A stretch of DNA of 64,000 nt. It comes from Eledone cirrhosa (Eukaryota). The position numbers were made by a program, and so were the translations under genes. Position 1 is the stretch's first letter. Each line of letters starts with the position of its first letter. This document shows, piece after piece, positions 1,201 through 56,423 of this stretch. Location of the stretch: assembly GCA_964016885.1 (NCBI GenBank), contig OZ024751.1:51460001-51524000 (forward strand). Reading direction: 5' to 3'. Under the pieces are notes generated by a model. The model saw only the letters and a list, made by a program, of their open reading frames with translations. It had not been told where the DNA came from and did not search any database.

Positions 1201-1614
1201 TATATATATATATAACCTTGGGCCCTCTTAAAATCATAGGGGTGTGATCGAGACATACAACATGTCATAAGCATTATAAACCTGGTAGAACCTACCATTC
1301 TCCAGGTCTGTATACAGCTAATTTATTACAGAGAGAGAAAGAGAGGGCTGGAGGCTGGAGTGATGAAGAAGAATTTGTACAAATATTAGCTTGATACTTT
1401 ATTTAATGACAACCAAAAGTATAAAAAACAAAGTTCATGTCAGGAGTATTTGAACTCAGAACTAGAGCTAAAACTATCCAGCTTTCTAAAGACTGTCAAT
1501 TTCCCACTTTTACATATATATCGTCCCACCCTTGCAAGCAGGGAAAAGCGGACGTAAAATGATGATGATGATGACGATGATGATGATGATATATATATAT
1601 ACACACACACATAC

Positions 1615-1645
<31 letters not shown>

Positions 1646-1672
1646 TACACACATATATATATATATATATAT

Positions 1673-2228
1673 AAATTGGAATAAATGCTCTGAAATAGCG
1701 ATATATATGTGAATATAGACATAGAATATTCGAAAATATTCTGTATGTTTATAATAAACATTTTGAAGACCTAATCGCTATAGAATAGAATACGTCACGT
1801 ATTACAATTAGATTCTCGATAAAAGCAAGGGAAGTAATCTACGCATTTCATTCTTGTTAGAAATCATCAGGACTACATATCCAGTGCTTTTATCGAGAAT
1901 GACACAGCTAGAGACTTATAGAATACTTAGCTGTGTACAGGAACTGGTTTGAAAGAGCGGTTGCCGGTCCGGCAGAAATTAGAAATTGGAATAAATGCTC
2001 TGAAATAGCGATATATATGTGAATATAGACATAGAATATTCGAAAATATTCTGTATGTTTATAATAAACATTTTGAAGACCTAATCGCTATAGAATAGAA
2101 TACGTCACGTATTACAATTAGATTCTCGATAAAAGCAAGGGAAGTAATCTACGCATTTCATTCTTGTTAGAAATCATCAGGACTACATATCCAGTGCTTT
2201 TATCGAGAATGACACAGCTAGAGACTTA
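1673..2228 (-). repeat. Inverted arm (~1.8 copies) of the 310-bp HHR monomer
   Basis: Reverse complement of the array at 2229-7357; period 310 (1681 vs 1991); HHRs at 1834-1876 and 2144-2186 on minus. Confidence 0.95.
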
Positions 2229-5200
2229 ATGTAGTCCTGATGATTTCTAACAAGAATGAAATGCGTAGATTACTTCCCTTGCTTTTATCGAGAATCTAAT
2301 TGTAATACGTGACGTATTCTATTCTATAGCGATTAGGTCTTCAAAATGTTTATTATAAACATACAGAATATTTTCGAATATTCTATGTCTATATTCACAT
2401 ATATATCGCTATTTCAGAGCATTTATTCCAATTTCTAATTTCTGCCGGACCGGCAACCGCTCTTTCAAACCAGTTCCTGTACACAGCTAAGTATTCTATA
2501 AGTCTCTAGCTGTGTCATTCTCGATAAAAGCACTGGATATGTAGTCCTGATGATTTCTAACAAGAATGAAATGCGTAGATTACTTCCCTTGCTTTTATCG
2601 AGAATCTAATTGTAATACGTGACGTATTCTATTCTATAGCGATTAGGTCTTCAAAATGTTTATTATAAACATACAGAATATTTTCGAATATTCTATGTCT
2701 ATATTCACATATATATCGCTATTTCAGAGCATTTATTCCAATTTCTAATTTCTGCCGGACCGGCAACCGCTCTTTCAAACCAGTTCCTGTACACAGCTAA
2801 GTATTCTATAAGTCTCTAGCTGTGTCATTCTCGATAAAAGCACTGGATATGTAGTCCTGATGATTTCTAACAAGAATGAAATGCGTAGATTACTTCCCTT
2901 GCTTTTATCGAGAATCTAATTGTAATACGTGACGTATTCTATTCTATAGCGATTAGGTCTTCAAAATGTTTATTATAAACATACAGAATATTTTCGAATA
3001 TTCTATGTCTATATTCACATATATATCGCTATTTCAGAGCATTTATTCCAATTTCTAATTTCTGCCGGACCGGCAACCGCTCTTTCAAACCAGTTCCTGT
3101 ACACAGCTAAGTATTCTATAAGTCTCTAGCTGTGTCATTCTCGATAAAAGCACTGGATATGTAGTCCTGATGATTTCTAACAAGAATGAAATGCGTAGAT
3201 TACTTCCCTTGCTTTTATCGAGAATCTAATTGTAATACGTGACGTATTCTATTCTATAGCGATTAGGTCTTCAAAATGTTTATTATAAACATACAGAATA
3301 TTTTCGAATATTCTATGTCTATATTCACATATATATCGCTATTTCAGAGCATTTATTCCAATTTCTAATTTCTGCCGGACCGGCAACCGCTCTTTCAAAC
3401 CAGTTCCTGTACACAGCTAAGTATTCTATAAGTCTCTAGCTGTGTCATTCTCGATAAAAGCACTGGATATGTAGTCCTGATGATTTCTAACAAGAATGAA
3501 ATGCGTAGATTACTTCCCTTGCTTTTATCGAGAATCTAATTGTAATACGTGACGTATTCTATTCTATAGCGATTAGGTCTTCAAAATGTTTATTATAAAC
3601 ATACAGAATATTTTCGAATATTCTATGTCTATATTCACATATATATCGCTATTTCAGAGCATTTATTCCAATTTCTAATTTCTGCCGGACCGGCAACCGC
3701 TCTTTCAAACCAGTTCCTGTACACAGCTAAGTATTCTATAAGTCTCTAGCTGTGTCATTCTCGATAAAAGCACTGGATATGTAGTCCTGATGATTTCTAA
3801 CAAGAATGAAATGCGTAGATTACTTCCCTTGCTTTTATCGAGAATCTAATTGTAATACGTGACGTATTCTATTCTATAGCGATTAGGTCTTCAAAATGTT
3901 TATTATAAACATACAGAATATTTTCGAATATTCTATGTCTATATTCACATATATATCGCTATTTCAGAGCATTTATTCCAATTTCTAATTTCTGCCGGAC
4001 CGGCAACCGCTCTTTCAAACCAGTTCCTGTACACAGCTAAGTATTCTATAAGTCTCTAGCTGTGTCATTCTCGATAAAAGCACTGGATATGTAGTCCTGA
4101 TGATTTCTAACAAGAATGAAATGCGTAGATTACTTCCCTTGCTTTTATCGAGAATCTAATTGTAATACGTGACGTATTCTATTCTATAGCGATTAGGTCT
4201 TCAAAATGTTTATTATAAACATACAGAATATTTTCGAATATTCTATGTCTATATTCACATATATATCGCTATTTCAGAGCATTTATTCCAATTTCTAATT
4301 TCTGCCGGACCGGCAACCGCTCTTTCAAACCAGTTCCTGTACACAGCTAAGTATTCTATAAGTCTCTAGCTGTGTCATTCTCGATAAAAGCACTGGATAT
4401 GTAGTCCTGATGATTTCTAACAAGAATGAAATGCGTAGATTACTTCCCTTGCTTTTATCGAGAATCTAATTGTAATACGTGACGTATTCTATTCTATAGC
4501 GATTAGGTCTTCAAAATGTTTATTATAAACATACAGAATATTTTCGAATATTCTATGTCTATATTCACATATATATCGCTATTTCAGAGCATTTATTCCA
4601 ATTTCTAATTTCTGCCGGACCGGCAACCGCTCTTTCAAACCAGTTCCTGTACACAGCTAAGTATTCTATAAGTCTCTAGCTGTGTCATTCTCGATAAAAG
4701 CACTGGATATGTAGTCCTGATGATTTCTAACAAGAATGAAATGCGTAGATTACTTCCCTTGCTTTTATCGAGAATCTAATTGTAATACGTGACGTATTCT
4801 ATTCTATAGCGATTAGGTCTTCAAAATGTTTATTATAAACATACAGAATATTTTCGAATATTCTATGTCTATATTCACATATATATCGCTATTTCAGAGC
4901 ATTTATTCCAATTTCTAATTTCTGCCGGACCGGCAACCGCTCTTTCAAACCAGTTCCTGTACACAGCTAAGTATTCTATAAGTCTCTAGCTGTGTCATTC
5001 TCGATAAAAGCACTGGATATGTAGTCCTGATGATTTCTAACAAGAATGAAATGCGTAGATTACTTCCCTTGCTTTTATCGAGAATCTAATTGTAATACGT
5101 GACGTATTCTATTCTATAGCGATTAGGTCTTCAAAATGTTTATTATAAACATACAGAATATTTTCGAATATTCTATGTCTATATTCACATATATATCGCT

Positions 5201-7353
5201 ATTTCAGAGCATTTATTCCAATTTCTAATTTCTGCCGGACCGGCAACCGCTCTTTCAAACCAGTTCCTGTACACAGCTAAGTATTCTATAAGTCTCTAGC
5301 TGTGTCATTCTCGATAAAAGCACTGGATATGTAGTCCTGATGATTTCTAACAAGAATGAAATGCGTAGATTACTTCCCTTGCTTTTATCGAGAATCTAAT
5401 TGTAATACGTGACGTATTCTATTCTATAGCGATTAGGTCTTCAAAATGTTTATTATAAACATACAGAATATTTTCGAATATTCTATGTCTATATTCACAT
5501 ATATATCGCTATTTCAGAGCATTTATTCCAATTTCTAATTTCTGCCGGACCGGCAACCGCTCTTTCAAACCAGTTCCTGTACACAGCTAAGTATTCTATA
5601 AGTCTCTAGCTGTGTCATTCTCGATAAAAGCACTGGATATGTAGTCCTGATGATTTCTAACAAGAATGAAATGCGTAGATTACTTCCCTTGCTTTTATCG
5701 AGAATCTAATTGTAATACGTGACGTATTCTATTCTATAGCGATTAGGTCTTCAAAATGTTTATTATAAACATACAGAATATTTTCGAATATTCTATGTCT
5801 ATATTCACATATATATCGCTATTTCAGAGCATTTATTCCAATTTCTAATTTCTGCCGGACCGGCAACCGCTCTTTCAAACCAGTTCCTGTACACAGCTAA
5901 GTATTCTATAAGTCTCTAGCTGTGTCATTCTCGATAAAAGCACTGGATATGTAGTCCTGATGATTTCTAACAAGAATGAAATGCGTAGATTACTTCCCTT
6001 GCTTTTATCGAGAATCTAATTGTAATACGTGACGTATTCTATTCTATAGCGATTAGGTCTTCAAAATGTTTATTATAAACATACAGAATATTTTCGAATA
6101 TTCTATGTCTATATTCACATATATATCGCTATTTCAGAGCATTTATTCCAATTTCTAATTTCTGCCGGACCGGCAACCGCTCTTTCAAACCAGTTCCTGT
6201 ACACAGCTAAGTATTCTATAAGTCTCTAGCTGTGTCATTCTCGATAAAAGCACTGGATATGTAGTCCTGATGATTTCTAACAAGAATGAAATGCGTAGAT
6301 TACTTCCCTTGCTTTTATCGAGAATCTAATTGTAATACGTGACGTATTCTATTCTATAGCGATTAGGTCTTCAAAATGTTTATTATAAACATACAGAATA
6401 TTTTCGAATATTCTATGTCTATATTCACATATATATCGCTATTTCAGAGCATTTATTCCAATTTCTAATTTCTGCCGGACCGGCAACCGCTCTTTCAAAC
6501 CAGTTCCTGTACACAGCTAAGTATTCTATAAGTCTCTAGCTGTGTCATTCTCGATAAAAGCACTGGATATGTAGTCCTGATGATTTCTAACAAGAATGAA
6601 ATGCGTAGATTACTTCCCTTGCTTTTATCGAGAATCTAATTGTAATACGTGACGTATTCTATTCTATAGCGATTAGGTCTTCAAAATGTTTATTATAAAC
6701 ATACAGAATATTTTCGAATATTCTATGTCTATATTCACATATATATCGCTATTTCAGAGCATTTATTCCAATTTCTAATTTCTGCCGGACCGGCAACCGC
6801 TCTTTCAAACCAGTTCCTGTACACAGCTAAGTATTCTATAAGTCTCTAGCTGTGTCATTCTCGATAAAAGCACTGGATATGTAGTCCTGATGATTTCTAA
6901 CAAGAATGAAATGCGTAGATTACTTCCCTTGCTTTTATCGAGAATCTAATTGTAATACGTGACGTATTCTATTCTATAGCGATTAGGTCTTCAAAATGTT
7001 TATTATAAACATACAGAATATTTTCGAATATTCTATGTCTATATTCACATATATATCGCTATTTCAGAGCATTTATTCCAATTTCTAATTTCTGCCGGAC
7101 CGGCAACCGCTCTTTCAAACCAGTTCCTGTACACAGCTAAGTATTCTATAAGTCTCTAGCTGTGTCATTCTCGATAAAAGCACTGGATATGTAGTCCTGA
7201 TGATTTCTAACAAGAATGAAATGCGTAGATTACTTCCCTTGCTTTTATCGAGAATCTAATTGTAATACGTGACGTATTCTATTCTATAGCGATTAGGTCT
7301 TCAAAATGTTTATTATAAACATACAGAATATTTTCGAATATTCTATGTCTATA

Positions 7354-7357
<4 letters not shown>
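2229..7357 (+). repeat. Tandem array of ~16.5 apparently identical 310-bp monomers, each with a hammerhead ribozyme (retrozyme-like)
   Basis: GTAGTCCTGATGA recurs at 2231, 2541, ... 7191 (17 times, step 310); no differences between copies seen by eye; array ends in (TA)n. Confidence 0.95.
2231..2273 (+). ncRNA. Minimal type I hammerhead ribozyme (first of 17 plus-strand copies)
   Basis: GTAGTC-CTGATGA-tTTCT aaca AGAAt-GAAA-TGCG-TA|GATTAC: helix I GTAGTC/GATTAC (6 bp, one G.U), helix II TTCT/AGAA, self-complementary helix III ATGCGT, predicted cleavage after GUA at 2267. Confidence 0.9.
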
Positions 7358-7431
<74 letters not shown>

Positions 7432-7548
7432 TATATACATACATATATATATATATACACATACATATATGTATCTACACACACACACATATATATATAC
7501 AAATATTTATATATATGGGGGGGGTATACATATATATCTATATATATA

Positions 7549-7650
<102 letters not shown>

Positions 7651-7651
7651 C

Positions 7652-7757
<106 letters not shown>

Positions 7758-7759
7758 TA

Positions 7760-7793
<34 letters not shown>

Positions 7794-8056
7794 CATATAT
7801 ACATATACATATATATATACATTTACATACACAAACATTCATAGACAGAACAATTAATTGATTAATTGTAAGAGAAACTGAGAGAGAAAGAGAGAGGGAG
7901 AAAGAGAAAGAAAGAGAAGAATGAGAGAGGCAAATGTAAATATACTTCTGACAAATCGTATTGTTTATAAATACATCACAACTAATTTTACTTATGCAGC
8001 AATCTCAGATCAAGCTCATGTGCAGTATGTGTGTGTGCATATGTTTATATATCTAC

Positions 8057-11297: not shown

Positions 11298-11966
11298 TTC
11301 AAATGCAGGCAGGTGCTATAGAAGTGGTGGATAGCTTCCAGTACCTAGGAGATCAGATTAGCATGGGAGGGGGGGGGGTTCCGAGGCCATAGTATCTAGA
11401 ATAAGGACGGGTTGGAAGAAGTTTAGGGAGCTGCTTCCTCTGCTGATGAAGAAAGGTTTCTCCCTGCGTACGAAAGGCTGGTTATATAATGCCTGTGTGA
11501 GGAGCGCGATGCTGCATGGTAGTGAGACATGGGCAGCAACTGCAGAGGATATGCAACAGCTGGAGAGAAATGAGGCAAACATGCTCCATTGGATGTGCAA
11601 TGTCAATGTGCGTGAACAACCCAGCATGGATGTGTTGAGAGAGAAACTGTGTCTGAGAGGGATAGAACGTAGTGTGCGAGAGAGGAGACTGCGGTGGTAT
11701 GGACATGTGAGGCGCATGGAGGATGATCGATGGGTGAAGAAGTGCCAGGAAATGCCAGTTGAAGGAAGACATGGTAGAAGTAGACCACGAAAAACATGGA
11801 CGGAGGTGGTGAGAACAGACCTCAGATCGCTGAAGCTCACAGTGGAGATGACGAAGGACCGTGACAAGTGGAGAGATGCTGTGCTGAATAAGACCCACCC
11901 ACCCTTGCAAGCAAGGAAAAGCGGACGTAAAATGATGATGATGATGATGATGATGACGATGATGAT
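11297..11966 (+). mobile_element. 5'-truncated RTE LINE, family 2 (C-terminal RT region plus (GAT)n tail)
   Basis: Translates ...FQYLGDQIS...WKKFRELLPLL...AMLHGSETW...RRLRWYGHV..., homologous to the C-terminus of the 32358 ORF but diverged; ends in (ATG)n. Confidence 0.9.
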
Positions 11967-12156
11967 GTATGTATATCTATATATGAGGGTCAGCTGAAAG
12001 GTTTATAGGCTGACCAAAATACTCTCATGGAATGACCATGAAATTATGTTGGAAAGGTTCTAGATAAATACACTTGCATTGCATATATAGAGCTGAAACT
12101 CCTTATAGTGTCATAAGAGTGCTGTAATGAAATGTGGCATTACTTAGGCATTTTAA

Positions 12157-41584: not shown

Positions 41585-41973
41585 TATATTAATAAAAGGA
41601 ATTCCAACTTTGTCTGATTTACTCGTTTTATTTACAATCCTTTAAAATTATAATGATATTATAATGAAATAGTATGGTAGAATATTAACTGTTAAGTGTT
41701 AATTGAACAAGTACTTTCATGCTTTCGCAATCTTCAGGTTCATATTCAGTGGTGACAGTCAAGTTTGCAATTTTTAACAGTTGAAAATTGCAAACTTGAC
41801 TGTCACCACATATTAAGAACCTGAAGATTGCGAAAGCATGAAAGTACTTGTTCAATTAACACTTAACAGTTAATATTCTACCATACTATTTCATTATAAT
41901 ATCATTATAATTTTAAAGGATTGTAAATAAAATGAGTAAATCAGACAAAGTTGGAATTCCTTTTATTAATATA
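41585..41973. repeat. ~390-bp palindromic HHR element centred at 41779
   Basis: ...TTGCAATTTTTAAC-A-GTTGAAAATTGCAA...; arms mirror to 41585 and 41973. Confidence 0.92.
41817..41853 (+). ncRNA. Minimal type I hammerhead ribozyme (mirror at 41705-41741, minus)
   Basis: GAAC-CTGAAGA-tTGC gaaa GCAt-GAAA-GTAC-TT|GTTC: GNRA-capped helix II, palindromic AGTACT. Confidence 0.88.
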
Positions 41974-52150: not shown

Positions 52151-52923
52151 GATATATATATATACAAATATATATATATATATATACAAATATATTGTTT
52201 CTAAATAATCTTCTTGTATTTTAAAACCCCATTATTCGCTTATTATTACTGTTATATGCTTCTCCAATTATGCCCCCCAAAATTCGAAGATTTCATTTAA
52301 AACCTCTCGCTAACTACCCCATTTGTTCTAAATAATCTTCTCTTCTCTTTCTAAAATAACAATCTTGTTTGTTTAATTTTGGCCGAAAAATGCTAGGATT
52401 TATAAAATGGCCTCATTGTCCCTTTACCCCATCCCCACTATATCGTATTACGCGCTGGCTAGTTCACCCTTTCAATCACTCCCTTCTCTCACCAAATATA
52501 AATAAACCTGTTGCGAGGTACGACTCTCAGAATTTGTCAACGCTTAAAAATGGTCAGACCTCGTCCCTGCGAAGTATAATGTAAATGCCATTTTTCTTAT
52601 CGCTCTCCAGCCTACCGGTCCATTCATTCTCATCGCCCAGAATCCAATCTTTGCTCTCTCTCAATGCTATTCTATAATTCTGTCTGGTTGTTTCTAAATA
52701 ATCTTCTTGTATTTTAAAACCCCATTATTCGCTTATTATTACTGTTATATGCTTCTCCAATTATGCCCCCCAAAATTCGAAGATTTCATTTAAAACCTCT
52801 CGCTAACTACCCCATTTGTTCTAAATAATCTTCTCTTTGCTAACAATGCCAAAGATAACGACAAATTCACCTCAAGCTGCCGGACGAAAGAGCAAGGCCC
52901 CCTCCTCTTTGTTTCGGCTGCGG

Positions 52924-55900
52924 ATGGCCAACATAACCCCAACCCCATCCCCTCACCCATCCCTGCGCCCCATCCTCCAAACACAATCCGAAACTTCAGA
53001 GTTGGTACCATAAATGTAGGCACCTTAAAAGGCCGCTCTAATGAGGTTGTAGAAATGCTTGAACGTAAGGAGGTTGATGTTTGCTGTATCCAAGAGACCA
53101 GGTGGAGGGGCGGGTCTGCTAGATTCATTGTGGGTAAAAAACGTTGCTATAAGCTTTTCTGGGTGGGAAATGACAATGGGATAGGTGGGGTAGGAACCAT
53201 GTTAGCAGAAAAATGGGTGGATAAGATAATAGATGTAAATAGAGTAAATGACAGAATAATTAAAATAAGACTTGTTCTAAATAGAACTACTGTGACAGTA
53301 ATATCTGCATACGCGCCCCAATCCGGACTGCCTGGCGCTATAAAAGACAGATTCTATGAGACACTGATGCTCACTACCTCCCAAATAACCGACAGTGACT
53401 ATATAATTATTGCTGGCGACCTAAATGGCCATGTTGGTCAACATTGTGACGGCTATGACGGAATCCACGGAGGCTATGGGTTTGGTACTAGAAATGAGGA
53501 AGGCTCCAGAATCCTGGAATTCTGTGATGCAAATAACCTAACTATCTGTAACATTAACTTCAAAAAACGAGACAATCACTTGATCACCTACAGATCAGGG
53601 GAACATACTAGCCAGGTAGATTATATCCTTAGCAGAAGATGTGACAGAGTGTCTGTTGTAAACACTAAATCCCTCCCCCATGAAGAATGCACCTCCCAAC
53701 ATAGACTGCTAATTAGCGACCTCATAGTCAGGACAAGACGTACTCGACAGCAGAAGAGGACTATCCTCAGGAGAAAAATATGGAAGCTAAAGGACCCCAC
53801 AGCCAGAAATAAATTTAAAAGCATATTACTTGATGCTTTCGACAGTAAGGAAGAGCAATTAGAGTCGTAGAATATAGAGGAACAGTGGGAATTCCTGAAA
53901 GCAAACCTGCTGATGGCGGCAGACAAAGTCTGTGGCTGGAGCAGGCCTGTAGGCAGGAGGAGAGTAACATGGTGGTGGAACAGTAAGGTGGAGGAGTCAA
54001 TTAAGGCCAAAAAGCAGGCTTGGAAAGTATGGCGGGATGGGGGAAGTAGAGAAGACTATCAAGTGGCCAGGAGGGAAGCTAGGAGACAAGTGTACTTCGC
54101 AAGAAGGGAAGCAGAGGAAAGAAAGTTCAAGCATGTTCTACAACGCGAGGACCAAAAACGCGAGGTGTTCAGGATTGCTAGGCAATGTGTCAAGGAAAAC
54201 CGTGATATTGTCGGGGAGAAGTGTGTACTTAATGATGATGGCGTACTTGCCATCACTGACGCTGATAAGAAGGAAGCTTGGAAGTGTCACTACGAAAGGC
54301 TACTAAATGAGGAGAATAAATGGGAGAAAGACAGTCTCCCCCACATCGACCCAATAGAGGGACCAGCAGTGTTAGTCGAAGGTAGTATAATAAGTAAGGC
54401 AATCAAAGATATGAAGACGGGTAAGGCGGCTGGGCCTTCGGAAATAGTTGCTGAGATGCTGAAAGCCTCTGGAACAGTGGGACACACTATGGTCACCCGG
54501 ATAGTAAACCAAGTCATACAGAATGGGGTTGTTCCGAAGGACTGGCGTAGCAGCATCATCATTAACTGCTACAAGGGTAAAGGAGACGCCCTAGATAGGA
54601 GTAACTATAGAGGCATTAAATTAATCGACCAGGTCATGAAGGTCACGGAAAAAGTAATAGCGCAACTAATCAGAGAGAGAATTGATCTAGATGAAATGCA
54701 GTTCGGGTTTGTGTCAGGCAAAAGTACCACAGACGCTCTTTTCATTGTACGACAACTACAGGAGAAGTACCTAGCTAAAAGTAAACCCCTATACTTAGCT
54801 TTCGTCGACTTGGAGAAAGCCTTTGACAGAGTCCCCCGTTCCATTATCTGGTGGGCTCTTAGAAAACTAGGTGTTGATGAATGGCTTGTGAGAGCTATAC
54901 AAGCTATGTATAAAGAAACAGTCAGCAAGGTTAGAATTAACAACGAATATAGTGAAGAGTTTAGCGTAAAAGTTGGTGTTCATCAGGGCTCTGTTCTTAG
55001 CCCCCTACTATTTATTATTGCCCTTCAGGCTATAATAGTGGAGTTCAAGACCGGCTGCCCATGGGAACTTCTATACGCAGATGATCTAACGCTCATAGCT
55101 GAATCAATGGCCGAACTAGAGAAGAAATTCCAAACATGGAAGCATGGCCTAGAATAAAAAGGCCTTAAAATTAACCTGTCTAAGACTAAAGTTCTAGTTT
55201 GTAGGAAGTAAAATAGGGCACCGGTCCCATCCGGGAAATGGCCATGCTCAGTGTGTAGGAAAGGAGTAGGTAGAAACTCCATTTTATGTCCCAAATGCAA
55301 AGTATGGGTGCATAAAAGATGTAGTGGGATCACAGGTAAGCTAACTAAGAACATAGATTTTACATGTGGCCGGTGCTCTGGTGCAATAAGTAGCAGCAAG
55401 TGCACACAAAATACTAGCTCTTTCAATTGCGCAGAGGGTTCTATAGAAATAGTGGACAGCTTCCGTTACCTGGGTGACAAAATCAGCAGTGGGGGAGGGT
55501 GCTATGAAAGTACAGTAGCTAGAGTCAGAACGGGATGGAAAAAGTTCAGAGAGCTTATACCACTATTAGCCGCTAAAGGGTTCTCCCTAAAAATGAAAGA
55601 CAGGCTGTATGATGCCTGCATACGAACAGCAATGTTGCATGGCAGTGAGACCTGGGCATTGTGTGCAGAGGATATACGCAGACTAGAGAGGAACGAAGCT
55701 TGCATGCTCCGCTGGATGTGTAATAGTAATATACGTGAATGGCAAAGCATAAAGGAACTAAGGAAAAAATTAGAAATAAGAGGGATCAGATGTTGTTTAC
55801 TCGAGAGAAGGCTACGTTGGTATGGTCACGTGATGCGCAAGAAAGACGACAGCTGTATAAAAAAGTGCAGGGCAATAAAGATAGACGGTAGCCACGGAGT

Positions 55901-56423
55901 AGGCAGACCCAGAAAAACCTGGGACGACCTGATAAATTCCGACCTCACACACTTACACCTCTCCAAGACAATGTCACTGGACCGAGATCTTTGGTGGCAC
56001 TCAGTAATAGAGAAGACCCGCCTTACCTAAATACAAAGTAAAACCTACTACAGTCAGTAGGCATCTCTAACAAAATACACCCCCGTCCCACCACCCCCAC
56101 CGCATCCACACCGCCCCTTTCAATGTAAAGTTATGTTGGTGTCACAACATCCAGGCCGAAACAAATGAGATCGTGTAGGTGTCACGACAAAAAAACACAC
56201 AGTCCACGCTGTAATGTGGCCGTGTAGGCAACACGGTAAAAACCTCCCAGCCCCACACTGTAAATGTGGTTGGTGTTAGGAAGGGCATCCAGCTGTAGAA
56301 AACCCGCCAGACAGTCCTGTGCGAGCAAGACAACCACTCTTGCCTCAAGTGGGAAAACTCCCGTCCAAACCCATGCAAGCGTGGAACACGGACGTTAAAC
56401 GATGATGATGATGATGATGATGA
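52924..56423 (+). pseudogene. RTE family 1 LINE, copy 2, full coding span but disrupted
   Basis: ATG at 52924 followed by a frameshift in the Pro-rich start; in-frame stops at 53868, 55155 and ~55209; ORF end 56030; 3' UTR and (GAT)n tail. Confidence 0.95.

Follow-up and report, generated by a model that had tools for sequence, protein, structure and literature searches.

A 310-nt hammerhead repeat of Eledone cirrhosa is a probable animal non-LTR retrozyme with a covarying RNA fold and Penelope-like insertions

The 310-nt unit repeated in tandem in a 64,000-nt stretch of the Eledone cirrhosa genome (GCA_964016885.1, contig OZ024751.1, positions 51,460,001 to 51,524,000 of the forward strand; hereafter the window) likely belongs to the animal non-LTR retrozymes rather than to the viroids, and behaves like a non-autonomous Penelope element. 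We consider it probable that this retrozyme has its predicted fold preserved by compensatory changes, that a 16-bp stem clamps helix I and the cut ends of its hammerhead ribozyme, and that it propagates by the cycle proposed below, in which a Penelope-type enzyme likely copies it into DNA. The fold as such is ordinary, since folding and a ribozyme are what one expects of a retrozyme unit, but three families and ~1,000 sampled units show helices kept by selection, with two helices flanking both fixed ends of the insertions. The element therefore offers a 310-nt, protein-free substrate for two open questions: i) which enzyme mobilises animal retrozymes, and ii) how Penelope elements make tandem and inverted microsatellite insertions.

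In the window the element forms a two-arm insertion bordered by (AT)n on the left (1589..1672) and on the right (7358..7819). The right arm (2229..7357, plus strand) consists of 16.55 head-to-tail 310-nt units, the 16 full units being identical, and its outer end is site A, in an ATATAT tract, joined to (AT)n. The inverted left arm (1673..2228, minus strand) contains 1.8 units with zero mismatches to the monomer, and its outer end, equivalent to ~2434, is site B, likewise joined to (AT)n. Measured from predicted cleavage site to cleavage site, the monomer spans 2268..2577; this and all features of the unit described below are on the plus strand. With 34% GC, a longest stop-free stretch of 59 codons and a longest ATG-started frame of 30 codons, the unit is non-coding. 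The window family is designated F1, and two sister families, F2 (~320 nt) and the older F3, are present in the same genome.

The initial annotation had described a viroid-like branched monomer closed by a 15-bp stem. All of the sequence segments it listed are present in the window, and ATTCTCGATAAAAGC (2517-2531) is indeed the exact reverse complement of 2281-2295, but the true length of the stem is 16 bp, with its 5' strand at 2517..2532 (P 0.95) and its 3' strand at 2280..2295 (2590-2605 in the next unit). The longest perfect stem among 1000 dinucleotide shuffles was 13 bp. Circular folding gave -70.4 kcal/mol versus -47.7 +/- 4.7 for dinucleotide shuffles (z -4.8; 0/200 as stable), the linear monomer folded at z -4.77, and the predicted circle is a branched fold with 60% of its bases paired. 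The interior alone (unit positions 29-249, with ribozyme and closing stem removed) folded at z -3.3, compared with +0.9 to -2.0 for 8 control stretches from the window. Since the minus strand folds equally well (circular z -4.7), folding energy alone does not tell which strand acts. With the closing stem forbidden in the model, the ribozyme strands are predicted to pair with the interior instead, and the probability of helix I falls accordingly (linear monomer, 0.99 to 0.01; circle, 0.96 to 0.03). This modelled dependence suggests that the closing stem likely insulates the ribozyme domain and keeps the cut ends together, in agreement, as far as the folding model goes, with the end-holding role previously assigned to it.

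The type I hammerhead core (2547..2577) comprises CUGAUGA (2547-2553), helix II, GAAA and helix III (AUGCGU). It is preceded by GGA, a UAU bulge and the helix I 5' strand GUAGUC (2535..2546); GUAGUC (2541-2546) pairs with 2578-2583 and GGA with UCC at 2585-2587, the base-pair probabilities for this region being 0.92 and 0.96. Helix II has a U.U at its base and the loop AACA, helix III is near-palindromic, and cleavage is predicted after GUA, at A2577 (2267 in the first unit). Rfam at its gathering threshold found nothing in the window, and since the HH9 alignment is weak (15.7 bits, E 0.45, below the gathering score), the hammerhead call rests on the core sequence and its relatives. The minus strand of the circle has no hammerhead core and the element exists in thousands of DNA copies; it is therefore not viroid-like in the strict sense, contrary to its first description.

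At 2572 the window array has a U of its own in place of the C found at nearly all other loci, and the modelled helix III dimer is weakened by this base (-3.9 versus -7.5 kcal/mol). The catalytic fold of the window unit lies 9.3 kcal/mol above the minimum free energy, compared with 6.7 and 5.8 in two other natural units. These models predict that the window's own unit misfolds its core and that its monomer ribozyme is weak. A short palindromic helix III that is active as a dimer and quiet in the monomer circle is a published pattern (PMC4209133). A tertiary contact between helix I and loop II had also been suggested, through the internal loop beside the long stem. The published contact motif (a 5' U and an extrahelical pyrimidine in loop I, RNnA in loop II; PMC2632901) does fit the unit, but by way of a bulge near helix I: the candidate contact joins U2584/UAU (2538-2540), closed by GGA/UCC, with loop II AACA. 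The motif is present in the window and, by eye, in F3, and is indistinct in F2; the last A of loop II is G in 25 loci, and no clear covariation of the candidate contact was found among the families compared.

Covariation was counted in a plain, unfitted MAFFT alignment of 18 F2 units, selected for their intact ends, with 23/24 distinct units from F1 loci, comparing the commonest pair in F1 with the commonest in F2. The 16 pairs of the closing stem show 8 double changes, 1 one-sided change, 6 unchanged pairs and 1 broken pair; helix II has 4 double changes, and helix I has 2, along with 2 broken pairs. Counted across the entire structure, 85% of cells are paired, versus 34-43% with the partners slid, and the covariation score was reached by 0/500 shuffles, a count that is not a probability, F1 and F2 forming one phylogenetic contrast. 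RNAalifold independently finds the closing stem, the AGAAUAUU/AAUAUUCU and AUGUUUA/UAAACAU hairpins and the GCUCU/AGAGC stem. F2 units fold at z -5.7 to -6.1 (3/3 units) with the same layout as F1. F3 was assessed within the family, using 30 copies for cell counts and 18 for RNAalifold; it has an outer closing stem of yet another sequence, with 247/269 cells paired in the 30 copies, a figure that is not a column count between F1 and F3. We conclude that the fold is genuine and that selection maintains the closing stem, the ribozyme and three or four of the interior helices. Selection at the RNA level, as the initial annotation had supposed, is thus supported by compensatory changes relative to two sister families, together with the stem-keeping template variants described below.

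The interior helices differ in how far they are conserved. 1) The AAUACG/CGUAUU hairpin (2304..2318) is predicted as first proposed (P 0.89), but it is not conserved column by column: in F2 and F3 a hairpin with a different sequence or register takes its place. 2) The arm stem AUAGCGAU, with its 5' strand at 2326..2333 pairing with 2405-2412, keeps AUAGC/GCUAU in F1, F2 and F3 (16/18 F2 units when read by motif; 113/131 F3 cells paired); it was scored broken in the F2 column count because of a one-column alignment offset. 3) The AUGUUUA/UAAACAU hairpin (2346..2362) has a probability of only 0.42 in the single-sequence ensemble, yet its proposal is supported by covariation, with U-A replaced by C-G in 18/18 F2 units (1 double change, the innermost pair being broken) and 186/203 F3 cells paired. 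4) The AGAAUAUU/AAUAUUCU hairpin with a UUCG loop (2365..2384), also listed earlier, is backed by 2 double changes in F2 and 3 in F3. 5) AGAGC (2416..2420), directly 5' of site B, pairs with GCUCU (2459-2463); this stem, absent from the earlier list, is found in both the minimum free energy fold and the RNAalifold consensus, and its F3 counterpart is GAAGC/GCUUC within a 7-bp stem (174/191 cells paired). 6) The UGCCG/CGGCA hairpin (2443..2455) is part of a motif whose sequence is conserved between F1 and F2. It had been given as TGCCGG-a-CCGGCA, in which a one-base loop cannot close, and folds instead as 5 bp with a 3-nt loop; F2 shows 0 double changes, 1 wobble and 1 broken pair. 7) The ACACAGCUA/UAGCUGUGU hairpin (2481..2515; P 0.98) is family-specific and encloses a TTCTATAAG motif common to F2, where 6 of its 9 pairs are broken; the hairpin annotated as ACACAGCTA/TAGCTGTGT is accordingly not kept in that family.

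The outer ends of the insertions fall at two sites of the unit. Site A, the AUAUAU tract (2397..2406), lies just 5' of the 3' strand of the arm stem, and site B, CCAAU (2431..2437), is single-stranded in the model; the two are putative start sites of reverse transcription. Among the 41 loci first examined, 29 are two-armed, all 29 having one A end and one B end, and their 3' junctions mostly join (AT)n. A further 80 loci were picked by their B end; 70 of these show both outer ends, with A opposite in 70/70. Genome-wide, there are 1,006 exact junctions of the B end to (AT)n. Junctions of F2 use the same sites (26/34 AB or BA, 1 BB, and 7 with an off-site end). The two arms share a haplotype in 53/56 loci, compared with 11% by chance, and the centre junctions overlap by at least 2 nt in 41/68 cases versus 20% expected. 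A clustering of arm 5' ends at the cleavage site (6 loci) was rejected as a BLAST filtering artefact, the corrected figure being 5/196 within 2 nt versus 3.2 expected. In Penelope elements the tail is the segment between two internal start sites of reverse transcription (PMC11167929), and Penelope insertions have an inverted arm and a bias towards microsatellites (PMC8557442). Judged from the sequence, the A/B ends, the inverted arm and the (AT)n targets of the retrozyme match the Penelope tail footprint.

A reverse transcriptase plus GIY-YIG-like ORF lies beside hammerhead repeats in the genome; the candidate helper ORF gave no recognition in Pfam or PDB sequence searches. The Penelope-like element shows the same pairing of a short and a long arm in 5 of the 6 loci viewed, the sixth being fused to an F2 unit, and the one examined has a tail of ~105 nt versus ~26 nt for the retrozyme. 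BLAST comparison of the monomer with 38 hammerhead-bearing loci returned sister retrozymes and short core matches, and no terminal-repeat homology. In the fused locus (L189:5985-6441; G000:C3:201.66 Mb), the Penelope-like arm ends ~20 nt past its hammerhead and is followed by 1.3 F2 units ending at site A, which could reflect either a template switch by one reverse transcriptase or a nested insertion. Another locus (L099:3099-3370) contains between its arms a 273-nt GC-rich filler that is unrelated to the monomer and has no Rfam match, possibly a captured cellular RNA.

We propose that the retrozyme arrays are transcribed and that the multimer would be cut to monomers by neighbouring hammerheads paired with each other at their palindromic helix III. 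The clamped monomer ends would be joined into a circle, probably by a host ligase (animal retrozyme monomers from axolotl and mussel self-ligate at 1-3%, and RtcB ligates 30-80%; PMC7229834), and the model predicts little activity for the lone ribozyme in the circle. Next, a Penelope-like protein would bind the conserved arm and AGAGC/GCUCU stems and cut (AT)n DNA on both strands, and each of the two DNA ends would prime reverse transcription, at sites A and B.

The same element and the same selected fold could also be copied from two internal start sites on a linear multimer that has not been cut, with arrays growing by local duplication and the long stem serving cleavage control or RNA stability rather than circle formation. 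We hold this to be unlikely, although several observations favour it: in L329 and L110 identical minority units recur in the two arms at corresponding rounds, and L098, L107 and L299 contain repeating blocks, neither of which is explained by a single monomer circle; Penelope reverse transcriptase used unprocessed RNA in vitro, where the hammerhead was dispensable (PMC11167929); Li et al. favour local amplification (10.64898/2026.07.22.740005); and the window ribozyme is predicted to be weak. However, mirrored minority alleles amount to 14/116 testable cases, all in those two loci, and 173/192 arms are longer than one unit, with roughly exponential lengths and 5' ends spread over the unit. Moreover, circles have been documented for coral, mussel and axolotl retrozymes (PMC7229834). 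In L329 (G000:C1:136.72 Mb), both arms start with two units of one subfamily and then switch at three linked sites, a pattern that suggests a mixed multimer template or conversion between arms.

Variation within F1 was analysed in 112 loci (~1,021 units), 9 of 121 loci being left out as old or segmentally duplicated. Variants fixed across a whole insertion must have been present in the template and are called template variants; variants of single units (singletons) may include assembly errors. The pair is kept in 8/11 template-fixed stem variants versus 19/75 singletons (Fisher p 0.003) and in 5/5 recurrent stem variants. Stems as a whole are not significantly depleted of variants (11/33 template variants versus 75/161 singletons, p 0.18), and the 11 invariant core positions carry 0/33 template variants versus 8/161 singletons, too few for significance. 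The template-fixed stem transitions give G-U on the ribozyme strand in 7 cases and A-C in 1, the corresponding singletons numbering 19 and 23. This excess bears against the idea that the stems act as DNA, by forming cruciforms or by a cDNA fold-back that makes the inversion, rather than as RNA structure. The centre junction does use the 16-bp stem exactly in L096 and L142, overlaps of at least 8 nt occur in 3/68 junctions versus 0.6% expected, and both strands fold equally well, but the other 65/68 junctions have shorter overlaps and the stems surround a hammerhead on one strand only, so that we regard a DNA-level role as very improbable.

An exact-pattern search of the 3.0 Gb genome found 5,325 cores of the window type and a further 4,073 with another base at position 10.1 (A in 100/100 among the matches listed), i.e. 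at least 9,398 hammerhead cores. A true viroid-like or retroviroid-like replicon, replicating from RNA to RNA with its copies secondarily integrated, would fit the size, the lack of coding capacity and the branched, highly paired fold, and others have considered such replication possible for retrozymes (PMC7229834), but the absence of a minus-strand hammerhead core, the sheer number of genomic cores and exact B-end junctions, and the low template diversity (33 distinct fixed variants in 112 loci) make it hardly credible.

The G-U excess on the ribozyme strand could have a contribution from RNA editing, and the surplus of variants that keep stem pairs, mostly A>G, could be due to editing instead of selection. 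A>G changes make up 7/11 template-fixed stem variants versus 6/75 singletons. The changes A2287G, A2526G and A2543G are each found on several haplotype backgrounds (4, 3 and 6, respectively), and a U precedes each site. ADAR editing prefers a 5' U. Editing by ADAR would explain the recurrent A>G changes; the low cost of changing A-U to G-U, combined with template recombination, would do so as well. At the position equivalent to 2543 in L306 (G000:C1:61.29 Mb), one arm has A for four rounds and then G and the other arm has G throughout, a switch that may reflect either editing or a change of template as the copy was made. We tentatively offer a wider scheme, which may well prove wrong, in which the long stems are A-to-I edited in RNA, Penelope reverse transcriptase writes the edits into the germline as a main source of heritable variation of the element, and the covarying arm and AGAGC/GCUCU stems position a Penelope reverse transcriptase dimer at the two start sites on a small circle. 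If the A-to-G excess does reflect editing, RNA editing would here lead directly to heritable changes in DNA. A search of titles and abstract openings in the open-access literature found no paper on retrozymes and ADAR.

The element resembles the animal non-LTR retrozymes (PMC7229834; 10.64898/2026.07.22.740005) in its tandem units within 170-400 nt, each with one type I hammerhead, its GC content below 50%, lack of coding capacity, highly self-paired predicted circle, thousands of copies and co-existing Penelope elements; it also shares the U.U at the base of helix II with axolotl HHR_Amex2. Expression and cleavage were shown for the retrozymes of those two studies, whereas the window element is known from its sequence. 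It differs in its opposed two-arm insertions, fixed A/B ends and covariation of non-ribozyme stems, which are not among the features described for retrozymes in the available text of the same two sources. With the Penelope-like elements (Poseidon from Anolis, PMC11167929; structure in PMC8557442) it has in common an inverted 5'-truncated arm, a tail restricted to one end, a pair of adjacent internal start sites (putative in the retrozyme), a type I hammerhead, and targets that are AT-rich or microsatellites. Unlike them, the retrozyme has no ORF, and both of its arms are multimers of one small unit; its tail is ~26 nt compared with 30-40 for Penelope, and its putative priming sites share AT microhomology with the target, unlike the start sites in Anolis, which are described as lacking homology to the cut DNA (PMC11167929).

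Newt satellite 2 and Schistosoma SM-alpha have a similarly short, palindromic helix III of a kind that favours cleavage as a dimer (PMC4209133, PMC6155905), and the Schistosoma contact, which the candidate contact of the window unit resembles, involves a 5' U and the last pyrimidine of the helix I loop and a loop II ending in A (PMC2632901). The hammerhead viroids (Avsunviroidae) are alike in size, lack of coding capacity, branched fold and hammerhead; in contrast to them, the window element has no minus-strand ribozyme, is DNA-encoded and is retrotransposed, and viroids are described as lacking DNA intermediates (PMC11210808). In the titles and abstract openings of the open-access literature we found no paper on cephalopod retrozymes or octopus hammerhead/Penelope elements, nor on a retrozyme with a Penelope tail, inverted arms and a rolling circle. 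The covariation, the conserved stems beside both end sites and the recurrent A-to-G changes in stems, possibly due to RNA editing, are regarded as new.

Internal promoters are known for newt satellite 2 and SM-alpha (PMC2220036). A search of F1 and F2 for a U6-like promoter element gave best matches with 7-10 mismatches in 22, and no such element was found; the same scan scored F3 no better (7 mismatches), the F3 match resting on a shared ATGCAAATGAGG. In F3 (L248-L277), ATGCAAATGAGG is followed ~44 nt later by TATA, a U6-like spacing that is also seen upstream of the host U6 genes L278 and L279, whereas F1 and F2 have a different conserved module where F3 has this element. The F2 core carries the published U3-A8 swap and palindromic helix III variants (PMC4209133). 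A ~163-nt F2 derivative without the hammerhead half (L236/L237) forms a four-unit tandem ending at site B, hinting that the half with the arm and B stems suffices for copying or amplification. An unrelated 470-nt hammerhead repeat (L191; G000:C1:163.57 Mb) also has opposed arms, with two different ends in (AT)n.

Several further features of the window were observed. A separate minimal hammerhead at 50-170 (core 50-74), followed by ~95 nt and then (AT)n, resembles locus L162 and looks, from its sequence, like the end of another Penelope-type terminal repeat. Identical hammerhead-like cores lie back to back on opposite strands at 41821 (plus) and 41737 (minus), and a candidate hammerhead with a U3-A8 core is located at 22852. 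Long open frames are present at 32280-35468, 52794-56027, 26332-27474 and 11362-11994, the starts of which, by eye, resemble LINE-type retrotransposon proteins.
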